Of a stretch of DNA of 64,000 nucleotides, positions 38,784 to 58,011 are shown one piece after another. The stretch lies in IMG/VR virus record IMGVR_UViG_3300034069_000900, positions 12,922-76,921 of that record; one strand, 5' to 3'. Position 1 is the stretch's first letter, and the number at the start of each line of letters is the position of its first letter. The stretch comes from a virus. The notes beneath the pieces are model-generated. The model was not told the DNA's origin. It ran no database searches and saw only the letters and a list, made by a program, of their open reading frames with translations. The position numbers and the translations under genes are program-made.

Positions 38784-39362
38784 ATGCAGGACAGTCTCTT
38801 AGCCGAGTTGAGTGCAGAAGCGGAAACGACTGCACAAGCCTTCCCGGATAACTTGAGCCGGCTGAGGCAATTAGCGGGTGAAGTTGCCCAGCTAGACCGC
38901 GAGATAGATGAGCTAGAGCAGCAACTTTCCGAAAAGAAAGCTACCCGCAACCGCATCCTCTCACGTGACATGATCGATGTGATGGACGAGTGCGCGGTGG
39001 ACTCTATCGTAGCCGGGGGCTACAGTTACGCCGCAAGTGAGTACTGTAAGGCTTCTATCGGCGCGCAGCATCCCAACCCCGGCGCTGCCTACGCTTACCT
39101 CGAGCAGGAAGGTGCGGGCGACCTGATCAACCGGACGGTGGAGGTGCGCTTCCCCCGCGGGTTCGAAGATGAAGTCGAAGCCCTGGCCCGGCACGCCCGC
39201 GAGCATTATCAGATGGCGGAAGTCAGCATCAGCAAGGGCGTGCCCTGGGCGCGGCTGACATCCTGGGTCAAAGAGCAGCGCAAGGCGGGCCAGGATTTGC
39301 CGCTAGAGTTGCTAGGTGCGACCGTAGGTCGTGTCGTAAAGGTGAAGCCGAGCAAGGAGTAG
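38784..39362 (+). CDS. conserved replication-module protein with N-terminal coiled coil
   Basis: GGAGG SD; pattern (AYAYLEQEGAGDLI; RLTSWVKEQ) is common upstream of SSB-like genes in related phages. Confidence 0.7.
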   Translation: MQDSLLAELSAEAETTAQAFPDNLSRLRQLAGEVAQLDREIDELEQQLSEKKATRNRILSRDMIDVMDECAVDSIVAGGYSYAASEYCKASIGAQHPNPGAAYAYLEQEGAGDLINRTVEVRFPRGFEDEVEALARHAREHYQMAEVSISKGVPWARLTSWVKEQRKAGQDLPLELLGATVGRVVKVKPSKE

Positions 39363-39366
39363 AGAC

Positions 39367-40245
39367 ATGGCACGCGCAGCACAAGCCCCTGTAGACGAAG
39401 AGAAGACGACAGCCCTAACAGCGGCAAACACTGCCGGGTTGCCCGCGGACTTGATGGCTGAAGCCGCTGAGTACGAGGGCCAGGGTACCAGTGCCAATGC
39501 GGACGACAATATCGTCCCGTTCATGGTATTGCTCCAGGATATGTCCCCGGAGACTAAGAAGCGTGACCCGAAGTACGTGGAAGGCGCCGAAGCCGGCAAG
39601 TGGATGAATAAGGCCACCGGTAAGGTTTACGACAGTTTCGATTTTCAACCCTGTGCATTCCAGCGCGCGATTGTGGTGTGGGTGCCGCGCGACGCCGGGG
39701 GCGGACTCAAGGGGCGCTACCCCCTGACCCACCCTACCCCGGAAGCCGCGTGCGAGGCCTTGGGCGGTAAGCAGGTCCCCGACCCCCGCGACAGCAGCGG
39801 TAAGAAGATGGTCTGGCGTGACGGCGACGGCAACGACCTGACGGATACTCGCTATCAGTACGGTCACATCGTCAACGAGGACGGCACCCTAGAGCCTGTG
39901 CTGATGTCGTTCAGCAGCACTCATCACGGCCCGGCCCGTCAGTTCATGACGATGCAACGGGGCCCCACCGCTCAGATGCCCCGGAGCAACGGGGGTGTGA
40001 TGGTGGCGCCTTCCTGGTTCCGCAAGTACCGGGTGGCGTCCCAGGAGCGCACGGGTAACGGGAACAGCTGGTTCGTGCCGAAGTTTGAAGATTACGGCAA
40101 CCAGGGCTGGATCGGGGATGCGAACATCCGCGCCGCCGGCAAGATGCTGAACGAGTCCGTCGGCACGGGCAAGGTACAGGCCGGGGACGAGAGCCACGCG
40201 CAGGGCGGGGCTGCCGCTGCGGACGACTCGGACGTCCCGTTCTAG
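39367..40245 (+). CDS. ssDNA-binding/annealing-like protein
   Basis: PFMVLLQDMSPE, GNSWFVP, acidic C-terminus ending DDSDVPF. Confidence 0.65.
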   Translation: MARAAQAPVDEEKTTALTAANTAGLPADLMAEAAEYEGQGTSANADDNIVPFMVLLQDMSPETKKRDPKYVEGAEAGKWMNKATGKVYDSFDFQPCAFQRAIVVWVPRDAGGGLKGRYPLTHPTPEAACEALGGKQVPDPRDSSGKKMVWRDGDGNDLTDTRYQYGHIVNEDGTLEPVLMSFSSTHHGPARQFMTMQRGPTAQMPRSNGGVMVAPSWFRKYRVASQERTGNGNSWFVPKFEDYGNQGWIGDANIRAAGKMLNESVGTGKVQAGDESHAQGGAAAADDSDVPF

Positions 40246-40319
40246 GGATTGCGGCCAACGTCGCCATGACGTGACAGCCGGAGAGACGGCACCTCACATG
40301 ACATATGAGGCCAAGCGGG

Positions 40320-41870
40320 ATGTCAGCCGCAACACCCGCCGACTTGACGCGTCGGCTTATGAAACTGATGGAAGGATATGCCGAATCTTACGGCACCTAT
40401 GATGCTGTCCAATACAACCCGGACAAAGGTGGTAAGCTAGAGATCAAGGCCACCGCCCGCACCGTGCGGGCCAACGTGACTGTAGAGCTCTGGCAGGACC
40501 ATGTGGACGGGCGCCGTTCCATCGGCATCGTGCCTATTCGGGATAATGACACGGCGCTCTGGGGAGTCATAGATGTTGACACTTACGACCTCGAGCATGT
40601 CGATATTGTCAAGAACATCGCCAAACATAAGCTGCCCCTCGTCGTGTGCCGCTCGAAGTCAGGCGGAGCGCACATCTTCCTGTTCCTCAAGGAGCCTGTC
40701 TCCGCGACGCTGATGCAGGCCCGCCTCAAGGAGATAGCCGCGACGCTGGGGTACGGGGGTAGCGAGATATTCCCGAAGCAGCGTACGGTGGCTTGGGAGC
40801 GCGGCGACTGTGGTAGCTGGCTCAATATGCCGTACTTTGATGCTGAGGTGACGGACCGCTACGGCATCAAGGATACCGGCCTCGGCATGAGCTTGGAAGA
40901 GTTCCTGGTCGCAGCAGAAGCGGCCCAACAGCCGGCGAGCTTCCTGGAAGACCAGGAGTTCCGCAAGAAACCCGCAAAGGACCCCGACTTCGGCGATGGT
41001 CCCCCGTGCATTCAGCACCTCGTCGCTATGGGCTTCCCGCAGGGTACCCGGAACAACGGGTTGTTTGCCCTAGGTACATTCGCTAAGAAGAAATACGGCC
41101 AGCGATGGCAGGAGCGCTTGGAGGACTGGAACAGGCAGTTCATGGACCCCCCGGTCGCCGCCCAGGAGCTGATAGAAGTCATCAAATCGCTGGAGCGCAA
41201 GGAGTACCAGTACCGCTGCCGGGATCAACCCCTGTGCGCGCACTGCAACAGCAGCTTATGTCGCACCCGCAAGTTCGGGGTGGGCGGGGAGGATGACTTC
41301 CCTCAGATAGATGGCCTTTCGGTACTGGACACTGAGCCCCCGCTCTGGTTCATGAACGTCGGCGATGTGCGCCTCGAGCTGACGACCGATGAGCTACAGA
41401 ACTACAGATTGTTTCACCGGGTATGCATGGAGAAGCTGTTCACCTGCTACCGGATGATGAAGCACGATGATTGGCTGCGTATTGTAGCCACGGCCATGAA
41501 AGATGCCGTGCGTATTGACGCCCCCCGCGAGGTCAGCCGTACGGGCCAGTTCCAGGACCACCTAGAGGACTTCTTGACACAACGCCACCGCGGCGAGATG
41601 CGGGATGATTTGTTGGTGGGGCGCCCCTGGCTGGACCCCGAGAGCAATCAGCATTATTTCAGGCTGCGTGACCTTAAGAAGCATCTGGAGCAGGCTAACT
41701 TCAAAGATTACTCAGACGCACAGATTATCACCCGTATTCGCGAGATGGGTGGTGATAAGAAAGTGTTTAACCTGAAGGGCCGATGCGTTAATACATGGTC
41801 CCTGCCCGAGGGTAGCTTCAGCGAAGCTCCGGTACTCGATCTTCCCAGCCTTGAGGATGAGCCGATCTGA
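40320..41870 (+). CDS. AEP-type primase with PriCT-like domain
   Basis: GIVPIRD, WGVIDVD, VCRSKSGGAHIFLF, EIFPKQ, WLNMPYF, PPC...GTRNNGLF, CRDQPLCAHC. Confidence 0.88.
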   Translation: MSAATPADLTRRLMKLMEGYAESYGTYDAVQYNPDKGGKLEIKATARTVRANVTVELWQDHVDGRRSIGIVPIRDNDTALWGVIDVDTYDLEHVDIVKNIAKHKLPLVVCRSKSGGAHIFLFLKEPVSATLMQARLKEIAATLGYGGSEIFPKQRTVAWERGDCGSWLNMPYFDAEVTDRYGIKDTGLGMSLEEFLVAAEAAQQPASFLEDQEFRKKPAKDPDFGDGPPCIQHLVAMGFPQGTRNNGLFALGTFAKKKYGQRWQERLEDWNRQFMDPPVAAQELIEVIKSLERKEYQYRCRDQPLCAHCNSSLCRTRKFGVGGEDDFPQIDGLSVLDTEPPLWFMNVGDVRLELTTDELQNYRLFHRVCMEKLFTCYRMMKHDDWLRIVATAMKDAVRIDAPREVSRTGQFQDHLEDFLTQRHRGEMRDDLLVGRPWLDPESNQHYFRLRDLKKHLEQANFKDYSDAQIITRIREMGGDKKVFNLKGRCVNTWSLPEGSFSEAPVLDLPSLEDEPI

Positions 41871-42301
41871 TGCCAGAGCCCCTCCAAGCTACCCCCGAGG
41901 ATGTCGAGCGGTTCATGTCCTATGTGGACCGTTTGCCCAACGGCTGCTGGTACTGGATGGGTGGGCGCAGCCGGGGCAAGGGCAATCGTCGATGGTATGG
42001 CACATTCACCATCAAGGGGCGCAAAGCCTCTGTCCGGGCGCATCGGTTTGCTAGTGAGGTCTTAGGCGGCCAAGTCTGCCCGCCGGACCACCACCGCGAC
42101 CACAAGTGCTGTTTCAGCATGTGCGTCAATCCGGACCATATTGAAGTCGTCACAAAAGAAGTCAATCAGCAGCGGCGGTGGGCGCGAGCGCGCCAACTGC
42201 TGTGCGAGGAGGTATGCAATGAGGAAGGAACTGGAGCAGCAGGCGCAACGCCTGCATCTTCTCATTCACCAGTTACAGAGCTCCGTGATAGTTGCGGCTG
42301 A
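41870..42301 (+). CDS. HNH endonuclease (zinc-binding loop type)
   Basis: GCWYWMG, YGTF, RAHRFA, DHKCCFSMCVNPDHIE. Confidence 0.85.
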   Translation: MPEPLQATPEDVERFMSYVDRLPNGCWYWMGGRSRGKGNRRWYGTFTIKGRKASVRAHRFASEVLGGQVCPPDHHRDHKCCFSMCVNPDHIEVVTKEVNQQRRWARARQLLCEEVCNEEGTGAAGATPASSHSPVTELRDSCG

Positions 42302-42443
42302 AGCTGACGGCGATGACTACGAAACTATCGTGAAGACTGCGTCAGGGGTGTTGTGGGAGGGGTTGGAGAACATCGATATGGCCGGGGGCGATTCAGCAAT
42401 GATACTGATGATGGTGCTGCTGACAGAAGGGGTCCGGGTATGA
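42219..42443 (+). CDS. hypothetical protein
   Basis: GAGGAGG SD; ATGA overlap with the helicase start. Confidence 0.5.
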   Translation: MRKELEQQAQRLHLLIHQLQSSVIVAAEADGDDYETIVKTASGVLWEGLENIDMAGGDSAMILMMVLLTEGVRV

Positions 42444-43948
42444 CAACATCGCTTCTATTGGGCCCACCCGGCACTGGGAAAACCACCACGCTGCTGAATT
42501 ACGTGGAGGATGAGCTGAGCTCGGGCACAGCCCCTGACCGCATCGGGTACGTCTCTTTCACGAAAAAGGCTGCGTACGAAGCCCGCGACCGTGCGTGTAA
42601 GCGGTTTGGCTTTAAGAAGACACAACTTCCTTACTTCAGAACCCTTCACAGTCTGTGCTTCGGTGCCCTTGGCCTTAGCTCATCGGATGTGCTCAACGGC
42701 AGGGGCATGCAACTCTTCGGCGATTGGATAGGGGTCAGTGTCAGCGGTCACCCCCCGGCCGAGGATGCGCTGCTTACCGGGTTTGAAGAAGGTGATAGGT
42801 GCCTATTCATTGATGGATTGGCCCGTGCCCGTGGCGTATCCCTCCGGGAGCAGTACAACACAAACCACGATAATCTACCCTGGCCCTTAGTAGAGCGGGT
42901 GTCTCGCGGGCTTATGGAGTACAAGAAGCGCCGGCATCTTGTGGACTTCTCGGGGATGCTTGAGATGTTCGCCGCGGGCCACTGGCCGGGGCGTATTGAG
43001 GTACTGTTTGTAGATGAAGCGCAAGACCTGAGCCCCCTGCAATGGCGCGTTGTATCGCAACTCGCACGCGGCGCCCGGCGGGTGGTAATAGCTGGGGATG
43101 ATGATCAGGCAATTTACGCGTGGTCAGGGGCGGCGGTACAGCACTTCGTGGACCTCCCCGGTCAGCCCACCGTTCTGGGGCAGTCTTGGCGGGTACCTCA
43201 AAAGATCCAGGCGGTGGCGAGCGAAGTGCTGGGCCGCATTGTCCGGCGCCGGCCCAAAGCCTGGGCGCCCCGGCCGGAAGAAGGCTGCGTGCGGCGCGTG
43301 CAGTCCTTGGACGAGGTGGAGTTCACCCCCGGCGAGGAGATGCTGCTGCTGAGCCGCAATACGAGCTTCATACGCAAGGACGTAGAACCCGCCCTGCGCA
43401 GCGAAGGCGTGCTGTATGACTACCGCGGTGAGCAGTCTGTGGCCCCGGAGCTGGTGGCCGCTATTTTGGACTGGGAGCGCCTGCGGGCGGGCGGTGAGGT
43501 GACGGTGCGGGAAGCGCGCGGTATCTACGCCCATATGACCCAGGGCCGGGGCTACGCGCACGGTCATCGTAAGCTGGAGAGTTATAAGAATGACGACCAG
43601 CTTGTGTGCGCCAGTGAGCTTAAGAGCCATGGCGGCTTGAACACAACGGCGATATGGCACGAAGCGCTAGACCGGGTGCCGGGGCAGGAGCGCGCCTACA
43701 TGGTCAAGTGCCTGCGCCAGGGTGAGAAGCTGGCCCGTAAGCCTACGACCCGCGTGAGTACGATCCACGGGGCTAAGGGCGGTGAAGCCGACCATGTCGT
43801 GCTGCTGCGGGATATGTCATATCGCAGTTATATGCAGGGTCAGCAGGACCCCGAGGACGAAGCGCGTGTGTTCTACGTCGCTGCGACGCGTGCCCGGCAC
43901 AAACTGACTATCGTGGCGCCCCGGACGAACAAGAGTTACGATATTTGA
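42440..43948 (+). CDS. UvrD/Rep-like SF1 helicase
   Basis: LGPPGTGKTT, VSFTKKAA, FRTLHS, FVDEAQD, AGDDDQAIY, STIHGAKGGEAD, RVFYVAATRAR. Confidence 0.93.
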   Translation: MTTSLLLGPPGTGKTTTLLNYVEDELSSGTAPDRIGYVSFTKKAAYEARDRACKRFGFKKTQLPYFRTLHSLCFGALGLSSSDVLNGRGMQLFGDWIGVSVSGHPPAEDALLTGFEEGDRCLFIDGLARARGVSLREQYNTNHDNLPWPLVERVSRGLMEYKKRRHLVDFSGMLEMFAAGHWPGRIEVLFVDEAQDLSPLQWRVVSQLARGARRVVIAGDDDQAIYAWSGAAVQHFVDLPGQPTVLGQSWRVPQKIQAVASEVLGRIVRRRPKAWAPRPEEGCVRRVQSLDEVEFTPGEEMLLLSRNTSFIRKDVEPALRSEGVLYDYRGEQSVAPELVAAILDWERLRAGGEVTVREARGIYAHMTQGRGYAHGHRKLESYKNDDQLVCASELKSHGGLNTTAIWHEALDRVPGQERAYMVKCLRQGEKLARKPTTRVSTIHGAKGGEADHVVLLRDMSYRSYMQGQQDPEDEARVFYVAATRARHKLTIVAPRTNKSYDI

Positions 43949-44428: not shown

Positions 44429-44587
44429 GTGCGCCGACCGCACCGAAGTTAGTGTTGGGGCGTGCCCGGCCCCCAAGACGTCGCGTCCTCCGTTGTGCTC
44501 CTCCTGCGACGATTCCTGCCGCTGCCGCTCCTGGCCTCATCGCTGTGGTGCGCAGGCCGGGGGCCGGGCACATCCTTAGGGGGTAGT

Positions 44588-45446
44588 GATGCGAGTGATA
44601 GGCACTGAGGGACTGCGCACCAAAGAGCTATTCGCCTTCATGCGCGAGCGGTACGCAATATTCCTCAAGAAGGAGGCCGGGGAGCCCAAGCCCTGGACCG
44701 CAGACCCAATCCTGCAACGCTTCCGCTTCTGTAACATTTATCGCGAGGATGATAAGGTCACCCGGTGGATCCGGGTCAACTGGCGTGAGCCCCACACCGA
44801 TGACCCCGACCTGTGGTTCGCCATGGTCGTCGCCCGGCATCTTAACCTGCCCGCCAGCTTAGAAGAGCTAGGGTACCCGGTGCCCTGGGACGGCGCCCGC
44901 TTCGTGGAGCTGATGACCGCCCGCAAGGCGCGCAATGAGCGTAACTTCAGCGCCGCTTACATGATCGGCACCAATGGCAACCCGGTCGAGAAGGCTATAT
45001 TCCTAGAAGATCGTATCTTCACGCCACTTTGGCAGGCTCGAGATACGCTGCGCCCGCGGGCCGGGGATACGTTGACCGCCTATCACATGATGCTGGGACA
45101 GATCTACGGCTTGGCGAGCTTCCTGACCGCGCAGGTTATCGCAGATACTAAGTTTCATGGCGTGCTGCGACAGGCCCCGGACTGGTGGGATTTTGCTGCG
45201 AGCGGGCCGGGCAGCCGGCGCGGGCTGAACCGGGTAATAGGACGCGATAAGGATGCCGGCTGGCGCGAGGACGACTGGCGCCTGACACTGGCGCGGTTGC
45301 GCGGGGCCGTGGAGCCCCTGGTGCTGGATGCAGGTATGCCCCCGCTCAGTGCGCAGGATCTTCAGAACTCCTTGTGCGAGTTCGATAAATACGAGCGCGC
45401 TCGTCTGGGCGAGGGGCGCCCGAAGCAGCTGTACGCAGGAGTATGA
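44588..45446 (+). CDS. 5-hmdU DNA kinase (aGPT-Pplase clade 1 family)
   Basis: FAFMRERYAI, PKPWTADPILQRFRFCNIYREDDKVTRWI, ASFLTAQVIADTK, GPGSRRGLNR, DLQNSLCEFDKYER. Confidence 0.88.
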
Positions 45447-45766: not shown

Positions 45767-47299
45767 ATGAGCGTTCGTTGGTCCACTGAGCAGCAGGCCG
45801 TTTTCCACTTCGTCACCCTCGGCCGCGGCTCCGCCGTCGTCGAAGCTGTGGCTGGCGCTGGCAAGACGACTACTCTGGTCGAAGCCGTCCGCCGTATGAG
45901 CGGCAGCGTGTTCCTCGGCGCTTACAACAAGAAGATGGGCGATGAGTTGAAGCACCGCGTCGCCGACTTGCGCAACGTCAAGGCTTCGACGTTCCACGCC
46001 GCCGGGTACGGCGCCCTCCGCTCCATCCTGCCCCGCGACCATAAGATCGAAGGCAAGAAGCTGCGCAACATCGCGGCTGAAGTCGTGCACAACACCCGGT
46101 TCGCTGGGTACGAGCCCGCTGTCGAAGCCCTCGCCAGCATGGCCAAGCAGCGCGGGTTCTACATCAAGACCCTCGTGCCCGCCCCGGTGCGCGACGAGTG
46201 GTACGACCTGATCAACCGTTACGACATCATGGATAAGCTCCCCGAGGAGGCCAGCGTCGAGGACCTGATCGACTTGACCGTGCGCACCCTGCAACTCAGC
46301 AATGAAGACCTGCGCACCATCGACTTTGACGACATGATATATCTCTGCCTGCTGCGCGGCGCCCGCGTGTTCCAGAACGACTGGGTGCTGATCGACGAGG
46401 CGCAGGACACCAACGCCACCCGCCGTGAGCTCGCCGCGCGTATGCTGAAGCGGGGCGGCAGGTTGATCGCGGTCGGCGACCCCCGGCAGGCGATCTTCGG
46501 CTTCACCGGGGCTGACGGCGATAGCCTCGACCTCATCAAGCAGCAGTTCGGGGCCCAGACCCTGAAGCTCGGCACCACTTACCGCTGCCCCAAGGCTGTT
46601 GTCGCTGCGGCCCGCGAGTACGTCGACCACATCACCCCGGCCCCCACCGCGCCTGAAGGCGAGCACCTCAAGATGACGCTGCGTGAGGCCACCTTGCTCG
46701 TGGCCCCCGGCGACGCCATCCTGTGCCGGTACAATAAGGACCTCGTGGACCTGTGCTTCAAGCTGATCCGCGAAGGCAAGCCGGCTAAGATCGAAGGCCG
46801 CGCCATCGGCGAGAACCTCGCCGCCCTGGCGGGCCGCTGGAAGGTTAGCACCCTGCACGCCCTGGAGACCAAGCTGACCCGCTACGAGGAGCGCGAGGTC
46901 GCTAAGGCGCAGGCCAAGGACGACGAGGCCAAGGTCGAGCGCATCCAGGACCAGTGCGCCACGCTGCGGGTGCTGATGGAGCGCGGTGCCGAGCAGGGCA
47001 TCACCACCGTCGATGGTCTCAAGGCCATGATCAAGTCCATGTTTGACGACGTCGGCGCTAGCCCCCGGCTCATCGTCCTGAGCTCCGTGCACCGCAGCAA
47101 GGGGCTGGAATGGCCACGCGTGTTCGTCCTGGGGCGCCGGCAGTATATGCCCTCGCGCCGCGCTAAGCAGGCTTGGCAGCAGACACAGGAGCTGAATTTG
47201 TGCTATGTTGCTCTCACCCGGAGCCAAAACGTTCTAGTCGATGTAGACCTGCCCACGAGCGAGCAAAATGCTATTAAGCAAGTTCCTAAAGCTGCTTGA
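45767..47299 (+). CDS. second UvrD-like SF1 helicase
   Basis: STEQQAVF, EAVAGAGKTTTL, AYNK, ASTFHAAG, LIDEAQD, AVGDPRQAIFGF, SSVHRSKGLEW, YVALTRS. Confidence 0.92.
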   Translation: MSVRWSTEQQAVFHFVTLGRGSAVVEAVAGAGKTTTLVEAVRRMSGSVFLGAYNKKMGDELKHRVADLRNVKASTFHAAGYGALRSILPRDHKIEGKKLRNIAAEVVHNTRFAGYEPAVEALASMAKQRGFYIKTLVPAPVRDEWYDLINRYDIMDKLPEEASVEDLIDLTVRTLQLSNEDLRTIDFDDMIYLCLLRGARVFQNDWVLIDEAQDTNATRRELAARMLKRGGRLIAVGDPRQAIFGFTGADGDSLDLIKQQFGAQTLKLGTTYRCPKAVVAAAREYVDHITPAPTAPEGEHLKMTLREATLLVAPGDAILCRYNKDLVDLCFKLIREGKPAKIEGRAIGENLAALAGRWKVSTLHALETKLTRYEEREVAKAQAKDDEAKVERIQDQCATLRVLMERGAEQGITTVDGLKAMIKSMFDDVGASPRLIVLSSVHRSKGLEWPRVFVLGRRQYMPSRRAKQAWQQTQELNLCYVALTRSQNVLVDVDLPTSEQNAIKQVPKAA

Positions 47300-47846
47300 A
47301 GATATACCCCGCACGGGGCCCAAGGGCTGCCAGGAGTGGCCCTTGGGTAAGTTTAATGATGGCTATGGGGGTGTGTCCATCGGTGGTGTGCGGGGTACGC
47401 AGAAAGCTCATCGTGTGTCTCTGAGCCTGAAACTCGGTAGGCCTCTGCGGGAAAATATGCTGGCTCTGCATACCTGCGACAACAAAGGCTGTGTCTGCCG
47501 AGATCACTTGTATGAGGGTACTCACTCACAAAATAGCATGGATGCACTGACGCGAGGGCAGTACCCTAAAGGGGCGCGGCATGGCACAAAAACCAAACCT
47601 GCCAGAGTACCTCGAGGATTAAACCACGGCTGTATGCGATCCAGGGGTAAGTTTTCGAAGCTGAGCGACGAAGATATCCTCGAGATAGGGCGCAGCTACT
47701 TGGAGGGAAACATAACGCAAGCCACATTGGCCACACGTTATGGGGTCAGTCGACAAACCGTGCAACGTATAGTCCGTGGAAAGTCATGGAAGCTTGTCGG
47801 GGCCGCCATTTCCACGCATAGGATACCTCGGAGAGGGATTGCATGA
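47268..47846 (+). CDS. HNH endonuclease with C-terminal HTH
   Basis: CQEW, GYGGV, KAHRVS, ALHTCDNKGCVCRDHL.EGTHSQN; ATLATRYGVSRQTVQRIVRGKSW. Confidence 0.85.
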   Translation: MLLSKFLKLLEDIPRTGPKGCQEWPLGKFNDGYGGVSIGGVRGTQKAHRVSLSLKLGRPLRENMLALHTCDNKGCVCRDHLYEGTHSQNSMDALTRGQYPKGARHGTKTKPARVPRGLNHGCMRSRGKFSKLSDEDILEIGRSYLEGNITQATLATRYGVSRQTVQRIVRGKSWKLVGAAISTHRIPRRGIA

Positions 47847-48920: not shown

Positions 48921-49454
48921 ATTCAGGTTTTTGTGCCAGAGGTCAGTTTCCCGCACAGCGTCGCCGTGTTGGATAATCGCCGCCTCAACAAGCAGATCAC
49001 TGAAGCGATACAGCTGCTCAACGCCATGCGGCGCCTGGATGAGCGGGACGCAGCCCTCGTGGCCGGGGCTGCTACAGCTAAGGGCGCTGTAGAACAATTT
49101 AAGCGGATCGGGTGGTCGGCGCACCCCGCACTCATCGCATGGCGGGGATATGCGCCGGCCCTGGCGTTGTACACTACGTTCGCTATCCGTGAGTGGCTCA
49201 ACCGGGGGTTCAACAACAACCGTCCCCCGCCTTACGATGCTGACTGGCAGCCCAATCCAGCTGCGGAGTACGCCGGGCAGCTACCCCCGGCCGCTGAAGT
49301 GGTGCTACCCCCCTGGCTGGGCGATAACCTCATCCACGCTACGCACCGCTCCAATCTGCTCCGCAAGGAGCCTGTGTGGTACGAAGCTTACGGGTGGAGC
49401 GAAGGGCCGGATCTAGCGTACATCTGGCCCGATCCCAAAGATTACAATTTCTAG
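48921..49454 (+). CDS. pyrimidine dimer DNA glycosylase / endonuclease V-like (MSMEG_6728-type) protein
   Basis: [28 protein letters not shown]...[14 protein letters not shown]. The start is probably ATT 48921 (ORF track: GTG 48933). Confidence 0.82.
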
Positions 49455-49522: not shown

Positions 49523-50599
49523 ATGGGCAAGGTACGGGTCGCTATTGCGGGCGTCGGCAACTGCGCAAACTCTTTCGTACAGGGGCTCAACTATTACGGT
49601 ACTCACCCGGAAGCGGACGGCTCTATCACCCCGGTCATCGGGGGTTATACGGCCGCTGATGTGGAGGTCGTCGCCGCCTTCGATGTCGTGGAAGGTAAGG
49701 TCGGCAAGTGCCTTGTAGACGCGATATGGGCCGCGCCCAACGATACGATTCATTTCCAGCCTGACTGGCCCAGCGCAGATGGTCCTATCGTTCAGCGCGG
49801 TGAGACGCTCGACGGTCTGGGTCGGTACATCCGCGAGGTTGTGAAGGAGTCCTCCGAGACCCCCTGTGACGTGGCCCAGGCACTCAAGGACAGCGGCGCT
49901 ACGGTTCTCGTCAACTACATGCCTGTCGGCAGCGAGCTCGCCGCGCGGTACTACGCGGAAGCTGCCCTCAAAGCGGGCTGCGCTTTCGTCAACTGCATGC
50001 CCGCTTTCATCGCCAGCACTCCGGAGTGGGAGGAGCGCTTCATCGCTGCGGGGCTGCCCATCATTGGTGATGATATCAAGAGTCAGGTGGGCGCGACCAT
50101 CGTGCACAGAGTGCTGGCCAACCTGCTGCACGCCCGCGGCGTACGCCTGAAACGCACCAGTCAGCTCAACGTGGGCGGCAACAGCGACTTCCTGAATATG
50201 CTGGAACGCGACCGTCTGCAATCTAAGAAGATCAGCAAGACGCAGGCAGTGACTTCCGCCGTGGGTGGGGCGCCGCTGCCGGCCCGTGACGTGCACGTCG
50301 GGCCGAGCGACTATGTGCCCTGGCTGACGGACCGCAAGTGGGCGCACATCCGGCTGGAGGGCGAAGCCTTCGGCGGCGTGCCGCTCAACATCGAGCTCAA
50401 GCTAGAAGTCTGGGATAGCCCCAACTCGGCCGGGGTCGTGCTGGACGCCGTGCGCTGCGCCCAACTCGGCCTGGACAAGGGGCTTAAGGGCGCGCTGACG
50501 GTGCCGTGTGCTGCTTACATGAAGTCCCCGCCCACGCAGATGGATGACGGCGAAGTCGCCGCGCTGATGCAGGATTACGCCGGGAAGGCTTGGGAGTAG
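49523..50599 (+). CDS. ino1: myo-inositol-1(3)-phosphate synthase
   Basis: [84 protein letters not shown]. Confidence 0.95.
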
Positions 50600-50603
50600 C
50601 ACC

Positions 50604-51632
50604 GTGGCACTGATCAAACCTATCGACAACGACCACCCTGGCGACTGGCATCACGAGCGCTTCATCGAGTTCGCCGCGGCGAAGGCAGCAATCAATGAGC
50701 CAACCCCGCACATGGGGGTGGTGACCTGGATGGTGCGGGGGCAACCCGAACCCGAAGCGATATGGCGGGCGGGGCTATACCTCGCCGCCTACTCAGTTCT
50801 GACCGGGGAGGGCATCTGGTCCTCCTGGTCGCACGAGCAGATCGCGGCGGACCCGGCGGGCAAGGCGTTCGTACCCTGGCTGGCCGACCACTGGCCGGGG
50901 GTGCATACTCGCAAGCCCCGGCGGTGCGTGCGCACCGTGCGCCAGTTCAGCCAGTGCGCCCTCGGCTTCGCGGACTGGGCCCGCGACGAGTTCCCCCGCA
51001 TGCGGGACGCGCGCTGGGCTAATCCGGAAGAAGAGTACGATGCGTGGTGGAAGTCGGCCAATAGCATCCCGTACTTTGGGCGCTATGTCAGTATCCGCCT
51101 GCTCGAGCTCATGCGGCGATGGGGGCATATGCGGGCCAATCTGTACGACATCCGGGCCGTGGGGGCGCACAGCCCCATCCGGTGCTTGATGCTGCTACGG
51201 CCCGATCGAGTCGCCGACCTAGCCACAGGCGACGCCCGCACTGTCAACGCTATCGCCGGGGAAGTGCTGGACGAGCTGAAGGGTATGGGCATGAATATGT
51301 CCCACTTCACGTATGCGACACTGCTTTGCGAGTACCGGTCGAACTATGAAGGCGGTACGGATTACGCCGGCAACCAGCACGACGAGGAGCTCGAATATTC
51401 GTTGAGCCGATACGCCGACTTCTGGCGAGAACGGGGCCTCAAGTCGCAGCTGTATGAAGCCCGCGCCGCGATTGACCCGCATGAGTGTCTGGGTGAGATA
51501 CAGGGTTGGACCAAGCGGCGCCTGGACGTGGCGGGGTGGCTGCGTACCCGCGGCATCGTCTGGGACGACACGAAATACGATTATCACAAATCTATCGCGG
51601 CGGATGCGCCCGTACTGAGGGTCATGGCATGA
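50604..51632 (+). CDS. amino acid:DNA transferase-like (aGPT-Pplase clade 2/3) DNA-modifying enzyme
   Basis: IPYFGRYVSIRLLELMR (HhH-like) and TYATLLCEYR...Y.G..D; context with 5-hmdU kinase and hydroxymethylase. Confidence 0.68.
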   Translation: MALIKPIDNDHPGDWHHERFIEFAAAKAAINEPTPHMGVVTWMVRGQPEPEAIWRAGLYLAAYSVLTGEGIWSSWSHEQIAADPAGKAFVPWLADHWPGVHTRKPRRCVRTVRQFSQCALGFADWARDEFPRMRDARWANPEEEYDAWWKSANSIPYFGRYVSIRLLELMRRWGHMRANLYDIRAVGAHSPIRCLMLLRPDRVADLATGDARTVNAIAGEVLDELKGMGMNMSHFTYATLLCEYRSNYEGGTDYAGNQHDEELEYSLSRYADFWRERGLKSQLYEARAAIDPHECLGEIQGWTKRRLDVAGWLRTRGIVWDDTKYDYHKSIAADAPVLRVMA

Positions 51633-52102
51633 GAGCGGGTGCAGCAGAAATCAGCCCCGGTAAGTTGTATCAGCGCGGCAACTTCCTCAAATGGCCCTAC
51701 GCCCAGAAGCACCGGCTGCTGACCACCTTGGGCGTGACCATGGTGGTCAATATGTGGGGCAAGGTGGACCCGGACCTCTCTACAGAAGACCAGGGGCGTA
51801 CGTACCTCAACTGGCTGTGCTCACCTTCTAGCGTGCCCCCGAACGCCGACCTGTACATCCAGTTTATAACCGATGCCATGAAGGCCGGGCACAATGTGCT
51901 TGTGCACTGTGAAGCTGGCCGGGGGCGGAGCGTGTGGATGGCGGCCCGGCTGCTGGCCGCCTACGAAGGTATCCCCAAGCGCGAGGCCCTGGCGCGGGTG
52001 CAAGTCGCCGTGCCGGGGCACAAACTGACGCCCACCCTGCGGGCTGATTTGGAGAGTGATGATGCCGCTGATACAGATACGCGGAACAAATGGCTCGGGT
52101 AA
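51629..52102 (+). CDS. dual-specificity/PTP-like phosphatase (CX5R)
   Basis: VLVHCEAGRGRS; ATGA overlap with the transferase stop. Confidence 0.85.
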   Translation: MRAGAAEISPGKLYQRGNFLKWPYAQKHRLLTTLGVTMVVNMWGKVDPDLSTEDQGRTYLNWLCSPSSVPPNADLYIQFITDAMKAGHNVLVHCEAGRGRSVWMAARLLAAYEGIPKREALARVQVAVPGHKLTPTLRADLESDDAADTDTRNKWLG

Positions 52103-52631
52103 GACGTACCTGATCAACAAGTTGATCAGCGAGCTCGGGCCGCCGGATGGCGAGCACAAGTTCGAAAATGGCAAGTTTGCTGCGAGCCTATGGTCGCAGC
52201 AGAAGATTGCTATCTTCGGCAAGTACACAAATGCCTGCGGGGGCTGCGACGGCTTCAGTTGGCCGGGGGCTGCGGAAGACATGGAGCGCGAGATCGTAAA
52301 GCTTCACGATGAGGGTTATACCTCAATCGTCGAGGGCCTGACTGTGAGTTGCTGGGGCCTCGCGCGGTTGCAGCGCCTCAAGCCACTCGGGCTGCACGTA
52401 CTCCAGCTCAACACCCCGTTTGAGGACTGCTTCAGTGCGATCCTCGATCGTCGGGCGGCCAAGGCCGCGAGCAAAGGTCAGGAGCCTAAGCCCCTGGACC
52501 GCAAGAACCCCTGGCGCAAGTTCACGGGTCTATTAAGTGTCATGCCGTTCCACCGTAAAGGGGGTATTGAGATAAACGAGTATAGTCGGGACGAGGCTGC
52601 CGTAGAGTTGCGGCGCGTATTGAGCCTTTGA
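52056..52631 (+). CDS. P-loop kinase of thymidine-modification clusters
   Basis: IQIRGTNGSGKT, GKYTNACGGCDG, SIVEG. Confidence 0.78.
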   Translation: MMMPLIQIRGTNGSGKTYLINKLISELGPPDGEHKFENGKFAASLWSQQKIAIFGKYTNACGGCDGFSWPGAAEDMEREIVKLHDEGYTSIVEGLTVSCWGLARLQRLKPLGLHVLQLNTPFEDCFSAILDRRAAKAASKGQEPKPLDRKNPWRKFTGLLSVMPFHRKGGIEINEYSRDEAAVELRRVLSL

Positions 52632-52698
52632 TCTATTTGCTCTGCGAAGGGTTAGATGCGATATTGACTATCGCCGCCCTTTGCAGAGTAGATGAGCG

Positions 52699-53718
52699 AT
52701 GTACGTCATTCCGTGCCGAAATGTAAACGACGCGTGGCCTGAAGCCATCAACGTCATCCAGCGCAACGGCACCCGCCAAGATACCCGCAACGGCCCGGCC
52801 CTCGTCGCCCCGTTCCCGGTCTGTACGATGTACACCCACCCTACCGAGTGCGTCCTCCTGGACCCTATACGGGATAGCAACCCGTTCTTCAGCGTCATGG
52901 AGTCCTTGTGGATGCTGGCGGGGCGGGATGACGCGACTTTCCTGGACCAGTTCGTCAGTGACTTCAGCGCGCGGTTTGCCGAGCCCAACGGGCGGATGTA
53001 CGGGGCGTACGGGTATCGGTGGCGCAACAATTTCTTGCTGAACGACTCCACGGACACAGCCACCGATCAGCTAGATGCTGTCGTGGACATGCTGTGGCGC
53101 GATAAGCAAACCCGACAAGCTGTCATTCAGATGTGGGACCCCGAGCTAGACTTGGGCCCGCACATCGTAAAGGACCGCCCATGCAACCTAAGCATCAGCC
53201 TGCGCGCTGACCGGGGTGTGCTGGACATGCTGGTCAACTGCCGCAGCAACGACATCGTTTACGGGGCGTATGGCGCTAATGCCGTGCACTTCAGCTTATT
53301 ACAGCAGTACCTCGCCGCGCGTATCGGCATACCAGTGGGCATCTACCATCAGGTCAGCTTCAACTGGCATATGTATGAGAACACCACTGACCATGTGGAC
53401 CGGGGGGCCGCCTTGCTGAGCGCGCAGGAACCCTACCCCGGCACCGTGCCGCTGGTGGACCACCCTGAGTCGTTTGATGAGGAGCTCGACCTGCTGCTGG
53501 CGGGTAGCCCGTGGGAACACCATGAGGGGCAGTTCCGAAACAAGTTCCTAAGCGACACGGCGCTGCCGCTGTGGCGGGCGAACAGCTACCGACGTGAGAA
53601 GCAGTACGACAAGGCCCTGGCTACCGCCTCCACCATCCTAGCTCCGGATTGGCGGGCCGCAGCTGTGGCGTGGTTGCAGCGCCGGGCCGCGCGGCATGAG
53701 GAGAAGCAGCATGGCTGA
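52699..53718 (+). CDS. thymidylate synthase-like dUMP hydroxymethylase
   Basis: NPFFSVMESLWMLAGR, YGAYGYRW, DQL, TRQAVIQMW, DRPCN, RSNDIVYGAYGANAVHF, SFNWHMY. Confidence 0.85.
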   Translation: MYVIPCRNVNDAWPEAINVIQRNGTRQDTRNGPALVAPFPVCTMYTHPTECVLLDPIRDSNPFFSVMESLWMLAGRDDATFLDQFVSDFSARFAEPNGRMYGAYGYRWRNNFLLNDSTDTATDQLDAVVDMLWRDKQTRQAVIQMWDPELDLGPHIVKDRPCNLSISLRADRGVLDMLVNCRSNDIVYGAYGANAVHFSLLQQYLAARIGIPVGIYHQVSFNWHMYENTTDHVDRGAALLSAQEPYPGTVPLVDHPESFDEELDLLLAGSPWEHHEGQFRNKFLSDTALPLWRANSYRREKQYDKALATASTILAPDWRAAAVAWLQRRAARHEEKQHG

Positions 53719-54158: not shown

Positions 54159-54713
54159 ATGACCGACCATGTGACCGACCGCCTGTATCTGGCGGGGCGG
54201 GTGGAAAGATACGCGACATGGCCGACGATACACAAGCAAACTGTCGGTGAACATTGTTGGCAGATCTATAACATCCATTGTCAGATATTCGGCACCCCGG
54301 ATCCGGGTGTGGCGTACACTATCATGAACCACGATAGCGCCGAACTAATAGTGGGTGATCCGCCTTTTCCTATTAAGGCCAATAACCCTGATCTCAAGGC
54401 AGCTTACACCCGCATAGAACCTGAAGCTGAAAAGCGACTCGGCGTAAAGCTGCCAGCGCTTGACGCCAACGATAAGGTGCGCATCAAAGTCTGCGATCTG
54501 CTCGAAATGTTCATTTTCGGAATAGTTGAGAGGGAGATGGGCAACGTGCTCGCCAGTCCTGTAGTGATGCGCACGCGGGATGCTGCCCTAGCGCTATCTT
54601 ACGAGATGCTGCCCCCGGATGATCACGCTTCCGTGGTACTATTTACAGAAGCTGAGATCCGCGCACACGACAAGCGCATGTTTCAGTTGAAGAGGATGAG
54701 CGATGAAGACTGA
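54159..54713 (+). CDS. HD-domain 5'-deoxynucleotidase-like protein (YfbR-like)
   Basis: GRVERY, QTVGEHCW, NHDSAELIVGDPPFPIK, KVCDLLE. Confidence 0.85.
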   Translation: MTDHVTDRLYLAGRVERYATWPTIHKQTVGEHCWQIYNIHCQIFGTPDPGVAYTIMNHDSAELIVGDPPFPIKANNPDLKAAYTRIEPEAEKRLGVKLPALDANDKVRIKVCDLLEMFIFGIVEREMGNVLASPVVMRTRDAALALSYEMLPPDDHASVVLFTEAEIRAHDKRMFQLKRMSDED

Positions 54714-55410
54714 AGAGATACTCGCCGAACGCGGCAACAAGTACGGGGAATACGCTGAGAACGCTCGCGTAATGCAGCGCATAAAAGATGCCCTGCGCTC
54801 GGGCAGAAGCTGGGATAAAGCCCCGGACACCGTCAAGGAAGCCCTGGAGTGCGTAGCCCTCAAATTGGGGCGAATCGTCAATGGTGACCCGCTCTACGAT
54901 GACAACTACAGGGACGCCATCGGGTATCTTACATTGGCGCTGGAAGATATTACCGCACGGGCGGCGCGGGACAGCCTTGAAGCTGCTATTCAGCAACCCT
55001 TTGCACCGCACCTGACTGGGGGTTGCTTGCCGGGGGTCGTGGGCGGCAGCCTGAACGGGGCTACCCCGCAAGACGCGGCAGTGCGGGTGTTCGTAGAGGC
55101 CATGGGCTATAGGGAAGTAAATCCCACGGAAGCCGGACCGCCCGGCACTGAGCCGCAGGACGCTGGTCACGCCGCAGAGCCCAACGAACGCAAGGTCCCC
55201 CGCGCGGATGGCATCCACCTGACCCCCGATCACTTCGGCATGTATTTCCGCACGGTGGCAAGTGTGATGGGCCGCCTAGAAGTCAACGACGGCCCCGAGC
55301 CGGAGCGCTTCCCGTTCAAGCTCAACGGGCGCCGTTACACGGAGTACGGGTTCTGCGCTGCGGCGGACGGCGACCCTATCCATGATATCATCGCATTCCA
55401 TCCGCACTAG
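54703..55410 (+). CDS. DUF6378/DUF3310-like N-terminal domain protein
   Basis: ILAERGNKYG, KLGRIVNGD...DNYRDAIGY. Confidence 0.7.
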   Translation: MKTEEILAERGNKYGEYAENARVMQRIKDALRSGRSWDKAPDTVKEALECVALKLGRIVNGDPLYDDNYRDAIGYLTLALEDITARAARDSLEAAIQQPFAPHLTGGCLPGVVGGSLNGATPQDAAVRVFVEAMGYREVNPTEAGPPGTEPQDAGHAAEPNERKVPRADGIHLTPDHFGMYFRTVASVMGRLEVNDGPEPERFPFKLNGRRYTEYGFCAAADGDPIHDIIAFHPH

Positions 55411-55421
55411 GGAGGTCACGA

Positions 55422-57500
55422 GTGGCGCGCGGGCATGTACCGGGACAAATGGACATCTTCAAGCCGCAGAGCAGCTGGAAGCCACCCACTGAACTCCCGG
55501 ACCTGCGGCGCCGCGTCATCGTAGCGATCGATAGCGAAACGCGCGACCGGGGGCTGGAAGCCAACCGTGGACCGGGGTGGCCGTTCGGGCGTGATTTCTG
55601 CCGGTTGTGTGGGATAAGCTGGGCGGCGGAAGGCTCGGTGGGGTACGCCCCGGTCGGGCACCCGGACACCGAGAACTTCCCGCTTGAGAACGTGCTGCGG
55701 TGGCTGGACGACTTGTTCAAGTCTGGTACACGCATCGTCATGCACAACGGGCCCTACGACGTCGGCGTGTTTGGTACATACGGGGTGGTGCCCCCGGCTA
55801 ACTTGGAAGATACACTAGCCGCAGCCGTGATGCTGGACGAAGACCAACCGCTATACCCCGGCAACTCACGTGCCTATAGCTTGGACAACTGCTGCGCCCG
55901 TTACGGTATCGAAGGCAAAGATACGGACCTGCTACGACAGGCGGTGCGCGCATACGGGGGCAACCCTAACAAACCGGCCGGTGACCTGTGGCGGGTGCCT
56001 GCACGCTACGCAGGTCCCTATGCCGAACAGGATGGGGTAGCCACGCTGGAGCTCTGGCAGCACCAGGAGCCGCAGCTGCGCGCCCAAGAGGTGTGGGACG
56101 CCTACCGCACGGAGATGGAGCTCATACCCATGGTCGTCGCCATGCGGCGCCGGGGTATCCGTATCGACGCAGGCATGGTGGACCGCACACGCACTGAGTT
56201 CCTGGGGCGGCGCGACGCCCTACTCAAGCGCATCAGCGAGCAAGCGGGTAGCCGGCGCCTGATGACAATCGGAGACGTGCGTAGCCCGCAGTTCCTAGAG
56301 AAGCTGTTCACACAGGAAGGCATCCCGTTCCCCCGCACCGAGAAGACTAAACAGGGTAGCTTCTCGGCGGATTGGATGGAGAAGTACGACCACTGGTTGC
56401 CGCAAGCCCTGGTCGACATCATCCGCTATGAGGACGCCGCGCAAAAGTTCTTGGCAAACTACCTGACCGGCTACGCCCACCGGGGGCGCATCCACGCCGA
56501 AGTCCATCAGTTCCGCAGCGACGACGGCGGTACGAAGTCACACCGGTTCAGCTACTCGGAGCCCCCGCTCCAGCAGATGCCTTCCCCGGACAAAGACCCC
56601 ACTGACGCTCTGAAGAAGGTGATCACAGAGCGGGCCACCGGCACCCTCATCCGTAGATGCTTCCTGCCCGAGCAGGGGGAAGCTTGGGGCTCGGTCGACT
56701 TCTCATCGCAGGAACCCCGGCTGGTCGTGCACTTTGCCAGCCTGTGTAAGTGTCCCGGCGCGGATGAGGCTGTGCGGCAGTACCTCGAGAACCCCCGCCT
56801 GGACTACCACCAAATGACGGCAGACCTAACCGGGCTGCCGCGCGCCAAAGCTAAGATCCTTAATTTAGCGATGTTATACGGCTATGGTCGCGCCAGCATG
56901 GCCGCGCACCTCGGTGTGGGGCTAGCAGAAGCCGACGAGCTCGCCCGGCAGTACCACGAGCGCCTCCCGTTCATCAAGCCCTTTGAGGAGCGCTGCAAGA
57001 CAACCGCAACTAACCGGGGGTACATCCGCCTGATCGATGGCGCTCGCATCAGGTACAATATGTGGGAAGGGCCGTATCTCAGCGCCGAGGAGCGCCTGGA
57101 AGCGCACAAGCTAGGCCATGTGACCACGTACTGCTCGCGCGAGGAAGCACAGCGTCGGCAGGAAGACCCCGCCCACCCCTGGGCCGGCAGGGTGCTGCGC
57201 CGGGCGGACACCCGCAAGGGGCTCAATAATTTGATCCAAGGTAGCGCCGCGCGGCAGACCAAGATCGCGATGCGGAACATGTGGCGTGCTGGGATACTGC
57301 CCCTGCTACAGCTGCATGACGAAGTCGCCGTGAGTGTCAGATCCAAGCAGGAACTCGAGCAGGTTGCACAGTTCATGGTAGAGGCAACACCTCTCCGCGT
57401 TCCGACCGTTGTAGACGCTGAGGTCGGTGATAATTGGGGCAACGCCAAAATGTCTTGGGATAAATATGAGCAGAACCGACAAGCGCAAGCCGCTGCCTAG
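55422..57500 (+). CDS. polA: family A DNA polymerase with 3'-5' exonuclease domain
   Basis: IDSETRD, HNGPYD, YAEQD; GTKSHRFSYSEPPLQQ, DFSSQEPR (motif A), RAKAKILNLAMLYG (motif B), LQLHDE (motif C). Confidence 0.95.
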   Translation: MARGHVPGQMDIFKPQSSWKPPTELPDLRRRVIVAIDSETRDRGLEANRGPGWPFGRDFCRLCGISWAAEGSVGYAPVGHPDTENFPLENVLRWLDDLFKSGTRIVMHNGPYDVGVFGTYGVVPPANLEDTLAAAVMLDEDQPLYPGNSRAYSLDNCCARYGIEGKDTDLLRQAVRAYGGNPNKPAGDLWRVPARYAGPYAEQDGVATLELWQHQEPQLRAQEVWDAYRTEMELIPMVVAMRRRGIRIDAGMVDRTRTEFLGRRDALLKRISEQAGSRRLMTIGDVRSPQFLEKLFTQEGIPFPRTEKTKQGSFSADWMEKYDHWLPQALVDIIRYEDAAQKFLANYLTGYAHRGRIHAEVHQFRSDDGGTKSHRFSYSEPPLQQMPSPDKDPTDALKKVITERATGTLIRRCFLPEQGEAWGSVDFSSQEPRLVVHFASLCKCPGADEAVRQYLENPRLDYHQMTADLTGLPRAKAKILNLAMLYGYGRASMAAHLGVGLAEADELARQYHERLPFIKPFEERCKTTATNRGYIRLIDGARIRYNMWEGPYLSAEERLEAHKLGHVTTYCSREEAQRRQEDPAHPWAGRVLRRADTRKGLNNLIQGSAARQTKIAMRNMWRAGILPLLQLHDEVAVSVRSKQELEQVAQFMVEATPLRVPTVVDAEVGDNWGNAKMSWDKYEQNRQAQAAA

Positions 57501-58011
57501 TGCGGAGTACATCCGGGAACACCTGTATTATTGCCCCGACACAGGTGCTCTTACATGGCGCAAATGCCCACCGCACCGTAGAGTAGCGATAGGTCAGGAC
57601 GCAGCCCCGGTGTGCTCTGGCGCTGGGCGCACGCGTATTACGTTCCGCAATGGCGGGGTGCGTTATGCGGCCCCTCGTGTGATCTGGTGTTATATGACTG
57701 GGGAAGACCCTGGTGAATTGGATATAGATCATAGGGACAGAGACAAACTGAATAATCGCTGGAGCAATCTCCGTAAAGTGGATGTGTCCCTCAATCAGCA
57801 AAACAAAAGCGCGGATCGTGACAGTCTGAGCGGGCTGCGGGGTGTGTGGCAACTCAAACATGGTGTCTGGGCAGCACAGATTGTCAGACGGGGTGTGCGT
57901 CGCACGTTGGGCTGGACGTTTCCATCAGCGGCGGAGGCTAGTGCTGCCTATGAAAAGGCGGCTGCTGAGCACGAGGCTGGGCTATGGCCTATGCAATCAG
58001 GGGCCGCCTGA
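57466..58011 (+). CDS. HNH homing endonuclease with AP2-like domain
   Basis: LYYCPDTGALTW, DIDHRDRDKLNNRWSNLR, SGLRGV; overlaps the polA end. Confidence 0.88.
   Translation: MSRTDKRKPLPSAEYIREHLYYCPDTGALTWRKCPPHRRVAIGQDAAPVCSGAGRTRITFRNGGVRYAAPRVIWCYMTGEDPGELDIDHRDRDKLNNRWSNLRKVDVSLNQQNKSADRDSLSGLRGVWQLKHGVWAAQIVRRGVRRTLGWTFPSAAEASAAYEKAAAEHEAGLWPMQSGAA

Follow-up and report, generated by a model that had tools for sequence, protein, structure and literature searches.

An inositol-phosphate synthase gene within a phage thymidine hypermodification operon points to a candidate inositol-derived DNA base

The 64,000-nucleotide stretch of viral DNA analyzed here (positions 12,922 to 76,921 of IMG/VR record IMGVR_UViG_3300034069_000900; referred to below as the window) belongs to a viral contig of 94 kb in IMG/VR with a CheckV completeness of 82%, recovered from a plant metagenome assembly. 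At 49523-53718 it contains five coupled genes, all on the plus strand, that code for a myo-inositol-phosphate synthase (MIPS; the product is named INO1), a transferase resembling the Pplase2/ADDT enzymes, a CX5R phosphatase, a P-loop kinase, and a thymidylate synthase (TS)-like protein. The ino1 gene (49523-50599) begins with an ATG preceded by GGAGAG and is separated by 4 nt from the GTG start of the transferase gene (50604-51632), whose end overlaps the ATG start of the phosphatase gene (51629-52102) in an ATGA; the kinase gene (52056-52631) starts at GTG 52056 or at ATG 52059 or 52062, and the TS-like gene occupies 52699-53718. A preliminary description of this DNA had proposed that the operon directs synthesis of an inositol-modified base, and had listed a 4-nt gap, a 4-nt overlap, and a 47-nt overlap as signs of coupling; all of the genes and junctions were found again, with the last overlap spanning 41 to 47 nt according to the start codon used.

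INO1 matches PF01658 (Inos-1-P_synth; Pfam E value, 7.6e-37) and aligns over residues 3-351 with Mycobacterium tuberculosis Ino1 (1gr0; E value 4.6e-122, 411 bits). Its similarity to MIPS extends over the full length and takes in both the N-terminal glycine motif for NAD binding and the blocks of the catalytic domain, and the alignment with 1gr0 retains all of the conserved family blocks, WDSPNSAG among them. It shares 64-68% identity with its nearest cellular relatives, the housekeeping MIPS proteins of Methylobacterium, Devosia, and other Alphaproteobacteria, and the match to Ari2 (6k96), which makes a five-membered cyclitol phosphate, reaches only 2.3e-54 and 188 bits. Because of this difference in score and the closeness to alphaproteobacterial MIPS, INO1 is placed nearer to genuine MIPS than to Ari2, and its sequence argues for a bona fide myo-inositol-1-phosphate (inositol-3-phosphate) synthase. 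The INO1 tree is too poorly resolved for counting acquisitions, and two 'long' INO1 matches (P0064 and P0065) considered as fusions were rejected, both being chimeric tandem assemblies.

The transferase narrowly passes the gathering cutoff of PF18724 (ADDT), with 28.3 bits against a threshold of 26.2, and precomputed matches to this family are present in 45 of 62 homologs; a profile of its clade matches gp123 of phage Cr30, a canonical ADDT, at 6.1e-9. An AlphaFold2 (AF2) model built on 29 homologs (pLDDT, 94.9) was compared with the PDB using Foldseek, and the top three matches are all to PaMx11 gp46, also called PUGT (8z2n and 8z2m; probability 1.0, TM scores of 0.53-0.66, 14-15% identity), after which TM scores drop below 0.2. 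PUGT was found only by this fold comparison, since the clade profile gave no match among PDB sequences at E values up to 1. Residues C242 and E243 are invariant in the 29 homologs, and the clade has further invariant acidic residues at D182, D260, E262, and E298, as well as invariant arginines specific to it (R106, R107, R160, R184, R245, R287, and R306). A low-confidence hhalign alignment (E value, 0.059) places C242 on Cys247, the catalytic residue of PUGT, whose neighboring Glu is conserved in M6 and ViI (PMC11472151, PMC8989533). Assignment of the protein as a divergent clade-2 aGPT-Pplase/ADDT-like enzyme with the all-helical, HhH-containing Pplase2 fold is supported by the model, and the enzyme is predicted to put a group onto 5-phosphomethyl-dU (5-PmdU) in DNA. 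That this group is an amino acid is doubtful, because the gene context argues for another donor. Searches of 50,697 phage records with the operon (megablast) and the transferase (tblastn) returned nothing, and this clade has no cultured phage representative; genome contigs searched with the single transferase protein yielded no relative, and hence neither a prophage nor a host assignment.

The phosphatase matches DSPc (PF00782; Pfam E value, 6.9e-09) and contains the motif HCEAGRGRS, with D47, C94, and R100 invariant in 30 orthologs; D47 is the presumed general acid. Foldseek comparison of its AF2 model (pLDDT, 91.9) recovers DUSP28, DUSP18, DUSP22, and DUSP23 at TM scores of about 0.7, and it is a Cys-based enzyme of the dual-specificity phosphatase (DUSP) or atypical DUSP fold. 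No specific similarity was seen to PTP-like phytases, PFA-DSP/Siw14, or PTEN, the best matches by both sequence and fold being generic atypical DUSPs and archaeal PTPs. In one related contig (L020) the transferase and phosphatase are joined in a single polypeptide of 529 aa (P0055), and the identical sequence is present in two others (L039 and L040). Complex prediction for the two separate proteins gave a score of 0.00, which weighs neither for nor against their binding.

The remaining two operon products have relatives in characterized thymidine hypermodification systems. The P-loop protein, whose gene sits between those of the Pplase2-like and TS-like proteins, has the Walker A motif GTNGSGKT and matches phrog_800 (1.5e-13), PaMx11 gp49 (32% identity, 9e-19), and M6 gp54 (27% identity, 3e-6). 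Both phage proteins are 5-hydroxymethyl-deoxyuridine (5-hmdU) DNA kinases, and M6 gp54 has been shown to be necessary (Lee et al. 2021, PMC8989533); by sequence, the in-operon protein is a homolog of this validated kinase (5-HMUDK). The preliminary description had assigned that function to the gene at 44588-45446, 5 kb upstream of the operon, and this does not hold. The product of this plus-strand gene (44586-45446) is a PF18723 protein (HMUDK_hel, formerly aGPT-Pplase1; Pfam E value, 1.8e-37) with 34-35% identity in tblastn to M6 gp55 and PaMx11 gp50, and M6 gp55 is dispensable in vitro for the kinase and transfer steps (PMC8989533). The two kinase labels are to be swapped. We note that PaMx11 gp49 (L056, 4218-4787) and M6 gp54 (L059, 4186-4749) are named 'terminase small subunit' in RefSeq/GenBank, a mislabel of 5-hmdU DNA kinases that has spread to PHROG 800 and to many phage records. 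The TS-like protein matches PF00303 (Thymidylat_synt; 1.1e-20) and phrog_5131 (7e-91) and is 41% identical to PaMx11 gp51. Its best PDB match is the CMP hydroxymethylase MilA, ahead of all thymidylate synthases; the PCN Cys is present, and the Asp of the cytosine-specific MilA is replaced by an Asn (GANA), a residue that points to uracil. The TS-fold enzyme is thus probably a dUMP hydroxymethylase, as judged from these residues and matches.

The gene order of the region can be aligned with that of the PaMx11 and M6 clusters. In PaMx11 the order is gp46 (PUGT/Pplase2), gp47 (FAD lyase), gp48 (acetyltransferase), gp49 (5-HMUDK), gp50 (Pplase1), gp51 (dUMP hydroxymethylase), and gp52 (HD protein), with PolA farther on; in M6 it is Pplase2, a pyridoxal phosphate (PLP) enzyme, a radical SAM enzyme, kinase, Pplase1, hydroxymethylase, and HD protein. 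The PaMx11 cluster is that of 5-AcNmdU, and the M6 cluster (gp51-gp59) is that of 5-NedU. The window has MIPS, the Pplase2-like transferase, the CX5R phosphatase, kinase, probable hydroxymethylase, HD protein, DUF6378 protein, and PolA, and shares a backbone of Pplase2, a tailoring slot, P-loop kinase, TS-like protein, HD protein, and PolA. Homology runs along this backbone, at 32% identity for the kinase, 41% for the TS-like protein, about 35% for the PF18723 protein, and 32% for PolA, with the same fold and Cys in the transferase. The differences are that the tailoring slot holds a CX5R phosphatase, that a MIPS gene precedes the transferase, and that the PF18723 gene lies outside the cluster; unlike those of PaMx11 and M6, the window cluster contains no PLP, radical SAM, FAD, or acetyltransferase enzyme. 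The synteny therefore agrees with the proposal, made in the preliminary description, that inositol chemistry fills the tailoring slot, with MIPS and the phosphatase replacing the PLP and radical SAM genes or the FAD and acetyltransferase genes. The predicted nucleophile would be a polyol or polyol phosphate and not glycine.

Downstream of the TS-like gene, and all on the plus strand, are a YfbR-like 5'-deoxynucleotidase of the HD-domain type (54159-54713; PF12917, 4.7e-11), a DUF6378-like protein (54703-55410; a weak PF19905 match and phrog_17775 at 5e-20), and a family A DNA polymerase (PolA; 55422-57500; PF00476, 2.1e-38); a small open reading frame (ORF) lies between the TS-like and HD-domain genes. 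The HD-domain gene, which is syntenic with PaMx11 gp52 and M6 gp59 and is conserved 3' of the TS-like gene in PolA-type relatives, probably shapes the nucleotide pool; the DUF6378-like gene likewise recurs in the module and is conserved in relatives. PolA is 32-35% identical to the polymerases of PaMx11-type and HTVC023P-type phages and is the replicase expected to incorporate 5-hmdUTP.

Taking these assignments together, we lean, by a little over even, toward an M6/PaMx11-type thymidine hypermodification pathway in which an inositol-derived group ends up on the base. By homology and synteny, the TS-fold enzyme would make 5-hydroxymethyl-dUMP, and PolA would build 5-hmdU into DNA; the P-loop kinase, like its homologs M6 gp54 and PaMx11 gp49, would then phosphorylate the 5-hydroxymethyl group on DNA to give 5-PmdU. 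The MIPS very probably converts glucose-6-phosphate to myo-inositol-3-phosphate, given its identity (64-68%) to the cellular enzymes. The conserved Cys of the transferase may form an exocyclic methylene intermediate, to which inositol 3-phosphate or free inositol would add through one of its hydroxyls, leaving a cyclitol ether-linked to the C5-methyl group. Addition of a hydroxyl is proposed by parallel with ViI gp247, which uses the hydroxyl of serine. The CX5R phosphatase would remove the inositol phosphate either before or after transfer; the transferase-phosphatase fusion of L020 slightly favors dephosphorylation after transfer, on the DNA. The predicted product, 5-(inosityl-oxymethyl)-dU, would be a nucleoside of 420.138 Da, or 500.104 Da if the phosphate is kept, and by analogy with other thymidine hypermodifications might be expected to hinder host nucleases. 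The formula put forward earlier, C16H24N2O11, and its isomerism with the base J nucleoside are correct.

Two known modifications offer the closest chemical comparisons. In the 5-NeOmdU pathway of ViI, in which gp247 is a serine:DNA transferase and acts with a PLP decarboxylase, an oxygen nucleophile likewise forms an ether at the C5-methylene of 5-PmdU (PMC8989533); however, the ViI donor is an amino acid that is matured by decarboxylation, whereas the donor here would be a cyclitol or its phosphate, matured by dephosphorylation. Base J of kinetoplastids, beta-D-glucosyl-hydroxymethyluracil, also places a polyhydroxylated six-membered ring on 5-hydroxymethyluracil (hmU), and the predicted inositol adduct is its isomer. 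For base J, a glycosyltransferase uses UDP-glucose and the bond formed is an acetal (glycosidic) one, whereas the base predicted here would be activated by a kinase, transferred by a Pplase2-type enzyme, and joined to a carbocycle by an ether, with no sugar nucleotide involved. Sister loci of the window transferase clade use TET/JBP and ParB together with TAGT, and in this resemble the TET/JBP-TAGT clusters of phages.

Having ino1 homologs is rare among phages, since just 19 records out of the 50,697 searched gave a match, and the ino1-transferase linkage is therefore far above chance. A search seeded with INO1 gave 14 viral loci, and iterative profile annotation places an ADDT gene next to ino1 in 13; the fourteenth begins inside ino1 at a contig end, leaving 13 assessable loci. 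A second set, assembled from the transferase clade, comprises 36 nonredundant contigs with the window counted, and ino1 is near the transferase gene (within 3.5 kb) in 24 of these; the phosphatase gene adjoins that of the transferase in 34, and a kinase gene is adjacent in 35. The preliminary description had named a lack of linkage between ino1 and transferase homologs in related phages as one ground for refutation, and by both counts the two are linked. The usual order is ino1-transferase-phosphatase, with transferase-phosphatase-ino1 in L005 and L032, and additional genes are found between ino1 and the transferase gene, coding for an HAD phosphatase (L009 and L011), an FkbM-family (O-)methyltransferase-like protein (L018 and L043), or a radical SAM/SPASM protein (L006 and L041), all of which fit with tailoring of a polyol. 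In L018, the genes for INO1, the FkbM-family protein, ADDT, and phosphatase are accompanied by a type 3 P-loop kinase and a TET/JBP dioxygenase in place of the TS-type route. The linkage thus spans both sources of hmU (TS-type and TET-type), varied replication modules, and two distant ADDT clades, the second of which, canonical and only remotely related to the first, is ino1-adjacent in Cr30 and in loci L013-L016. The association is recurrent and independent of genome architecture.

Cr30 is a cultured phage of Caulobacter and resembles the window in having ino1 (gp121) two genes from an ADDT gene (gp123; L003, NC_025422.1, 54208-57655). It differs in being a T4-like myovirus, in that its ADDT is canonical (Pfam E value, 1.3e-52), in lacking a CX5R phosphatase, and in having a weakly TAGT/glucosyltransferase-like gene (gp122) between the two; these genes are annotated as hypothetical or stand-alone. 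In Ralstonia phage RP13 (L002, LC554890.1, 87801-97421), ino1 (ORF125) is located between a PF18723 gene (ORF120; 3e-47) and an HMUD2-type 5-hmdU DNA kinase gene (ORF133; 1.4e-13). No Pplase2 was detected in RP13, where the PF18723 protein might itself serve as transferase. We also observed that Cr30 gp114, a P-loop 'terminase small subunit' encoded near the ino1-ADDT genes, is probably a kinase, and that anti-CBASS genes lie a few kilobases from ino1 in both phages (Acb3 in Cr30, L003 15864-16664, 1.8e-68; Acb1 in RP13, L002 12631-13221, 8.7e-15), such that the region looks like a counter-defense neighborhood.

Other observations weigh against a direct role for inositol in base modification. 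The nucleophiles of all characterized Pplase2 enzymes are amines or serine (PMC8989533, PMC13458397), identity between the transferase clade and PUGT is just 14-15%, and searches with the sequence and fold of the phosphatase gave no inositol-phosphate-specific feature or pointer to a substrate, but a generic DUSP. Because an HAD phosphatase co-occurs with the CX5R enzyme in L009 and L011, the role of the latter is ambiguous, and it may do another job, for example on (unreacted) 5-PmdU. Furthermore, 8 of the 36 transferase-clade loci lack a phage ino1, and 6 of these 8 keep the phosphatase; this count takes in loci whose flanks reach 3 kb or more in both directions, and four further contigs were truncated and left out. 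Phage-encoded ino1 is therefore not obligatory, being either dispensable or replaced by a host supply of the metabolite. Lastly, Menderavirus phages have ino1, and no ADDT was found in the genome. The Menderavirus gene is located inside a 7-deazaguanine DNA-modification cluster, between FolE and QueC/DpdA-like TGT/QueE (Stenotrophomonas phage Moby, L001, MN095772.1, 28187-33601), and inositol chemistry may have a link to purine modification as well.

Five of the eight ino1-less loci are cassettes of ParB, ADDT, in some cases TAGT, the phosphatase, a kinase, and TET, and fall among the ParB-dependent T-dioxygenase clusters that O'Toole et al. describe (PMC13229309) in a paper with no mention of a phosphatase or of inositol. 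On the ADDT tree, ino1-less members nest among ino1-linked branches, with L022 sister to the window subclade (support, 100/99), which suggests that ino1 was lost and the metabolite is supplied by the host, more than that the substrate changed. Genes of the inositol monophosphatase (IMPase) family are present in 14 of 14 control bacterial genomes, and therefore host activity could also yield free inositol. Two ORFs considered as hidden cyclitol synthases were rejected: a 366-aa ORF 5' of the ADDT gene in L022 codes for a ParB-like protein and not a MIPS, and a 379-aa ORF at the position of ino1 in sister loci (L050, 7376-8515) codes for an AcrVA2-like anti-CRISPR (protein-atlas feature score, 0.97). 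This AcrVA2-like gene lies upstream of the radical SAM and ADDT genes, and L050 keeps its radical SAM/SPASM gene though it lacks ino1. In L021 (5558-7867), whose transferase is the most divergent of its clade, TAGT, HAD phosphatase, and ADDT genes are arranged together, the replication module is of the DnaE type, and neither ino1 nor the CX5R phosphatase is present.

These patterns raise the question as to whether the transferase-phosphatase pair attaches some other metabolite to 5-PmdU, such as a sugar phosphate, glycerol phosphate, phosphoserine, phosphoethanolamine, or an amine, with inositol coming in only later, or as an option in some lineages. We regard this as unlikely, if far from implausible. 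Such a donor would agree with the known Pplase2 substrates (PMC8989533, PMC13458397) and with the constant pairing of transferase and phosphatase (34 of 36 contigs, and the fusion) when ino1 accompanies the transferase in only 24 and is absent from eight well-flanked loci, and TET-type loci lacking ino1 have a TAGT glycosyltransferase gene between those of the ADDT and the phosphatase. However, the window contains no other substrate-making enzyme, neither an IMPase nor a TAGT is present in the 94-kb contig, and no more than 4 nt separate ino1 from the transferase gene. The nesting of ino1-less loci within ino1-linked clades is better explained by host supply than by a switch of substrate, and the remotely related second ADDT clade is adjoined by ino1 too.

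That ino1 is instead a stand-alone auxiliary metabolic gene, providing the host with inositol for lipids, mycothiol, or osmolytes and placed here by genome architecture only, is in our view improbable. It is true that INO1, with 64-68% identity, cannot be told apart from cellular MIPS, that early and metabolic genes cluster in phage genomes, and that the Menderavirus gene has no ADDT partner; the latter gene is nonetheless itself within a DNA-modification cluster, and ADDT adjacency at each of the 13 assessable loci from the INO1 search, as well as in cultured Cr30, across two ADDT clades, varied gene orders, and varied replication modules, together with the tight coupling of start and stop codons, weighs against this reading. 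Even less probable is that the product of INO1 is another cyclitol phosphate, for instance a five-membered carbocycle such as Ari2 makes, or that INO1 acts on another sugar phosphate, such that the adduct is a non-inositol carbocycle. Ari2 is a member of the MIPS family and does match INO1 (2.3e-54), and the radical SAM/SPASM and methyltransferase genes of sister loci suggest remodeling of a ring, but INO1 scores far higher against genuine Ino1 (411 versus 188 bits), with all motifs kept, and the closest relatives are housekeeping alphaproteobacterial enzymes.

Returning to inositol as the source of the adduct, the backbone is that of a known thymidine hypermodification pathway, and the adduct is possibly a new chemical class. 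A fuller version, which we put forward tentatively and a little short of even confidence, is that phages make a class of bases in which a cyclitol (myo-inositol, O-methylated or remodeled in some lineages) is ether-linked to 5-hydroxymethyluracil by a dedicated transferase-phosphatase pair, with inositol 3-phosphate as donor and dephosphorylation on DNA, the same metabolite perhaps being recruited to hydroxymethylcytosine (hmC)-type and 7-deazaguanine systems. The known classes of natural DNA modification are sugars, amino acids, polyamines, and 7-deazapurines, and full-text literature searches found no report linking inositol to DNA modification. If this version is correct, a carbocyclic polyol would join these classes, the donor range of Pplase2/ADDT enzymes would widen from amines and serine to polyols or polyol phosphates, and a Cys-phosphatase would gain a role in DNA base maturation. 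The adduct would be bulky, uncharged, and non-glycosidic, presumably resistant to glycosidases, and relevant to evasion of restriction and CRISPR, to enzymatic DNA labeling, and to nanopore base-calling; since the predicted nucleoside is isomeric with that of base J, surveys relying on mass only could mislabel it. Because cultured Cr30 carries the ino1-ADDT pairing, the hypothesis is directly testable, with this phage as a natural test system.

The region surrounding the operon contains several further genes. A T4 endonuclease V-like pyrimidine-dimer DNA glycosylase (48933-49454; PF03013, 2.8e-13) is encoded immediately 5' of ino1 and is not conserved in related loci. Three HNH endonuclease-like ORFs (41870-42301, 47268-47846, and 57427-58011) are interleaved with PolA and two UvrD-like helicase genes (42353-43948 and 45767-47299), and the replication module of the window is rich in homing-endonuclease-like genes. 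Upstream of the module, at 38784-40245 and 40305-41870, are Pam3 gp33-like and gp34-like proteins (PF23984 and PF23977) and an AEP-type primase (AEP-TOTE domain), and the same trio is also found 5' of the module in L020.

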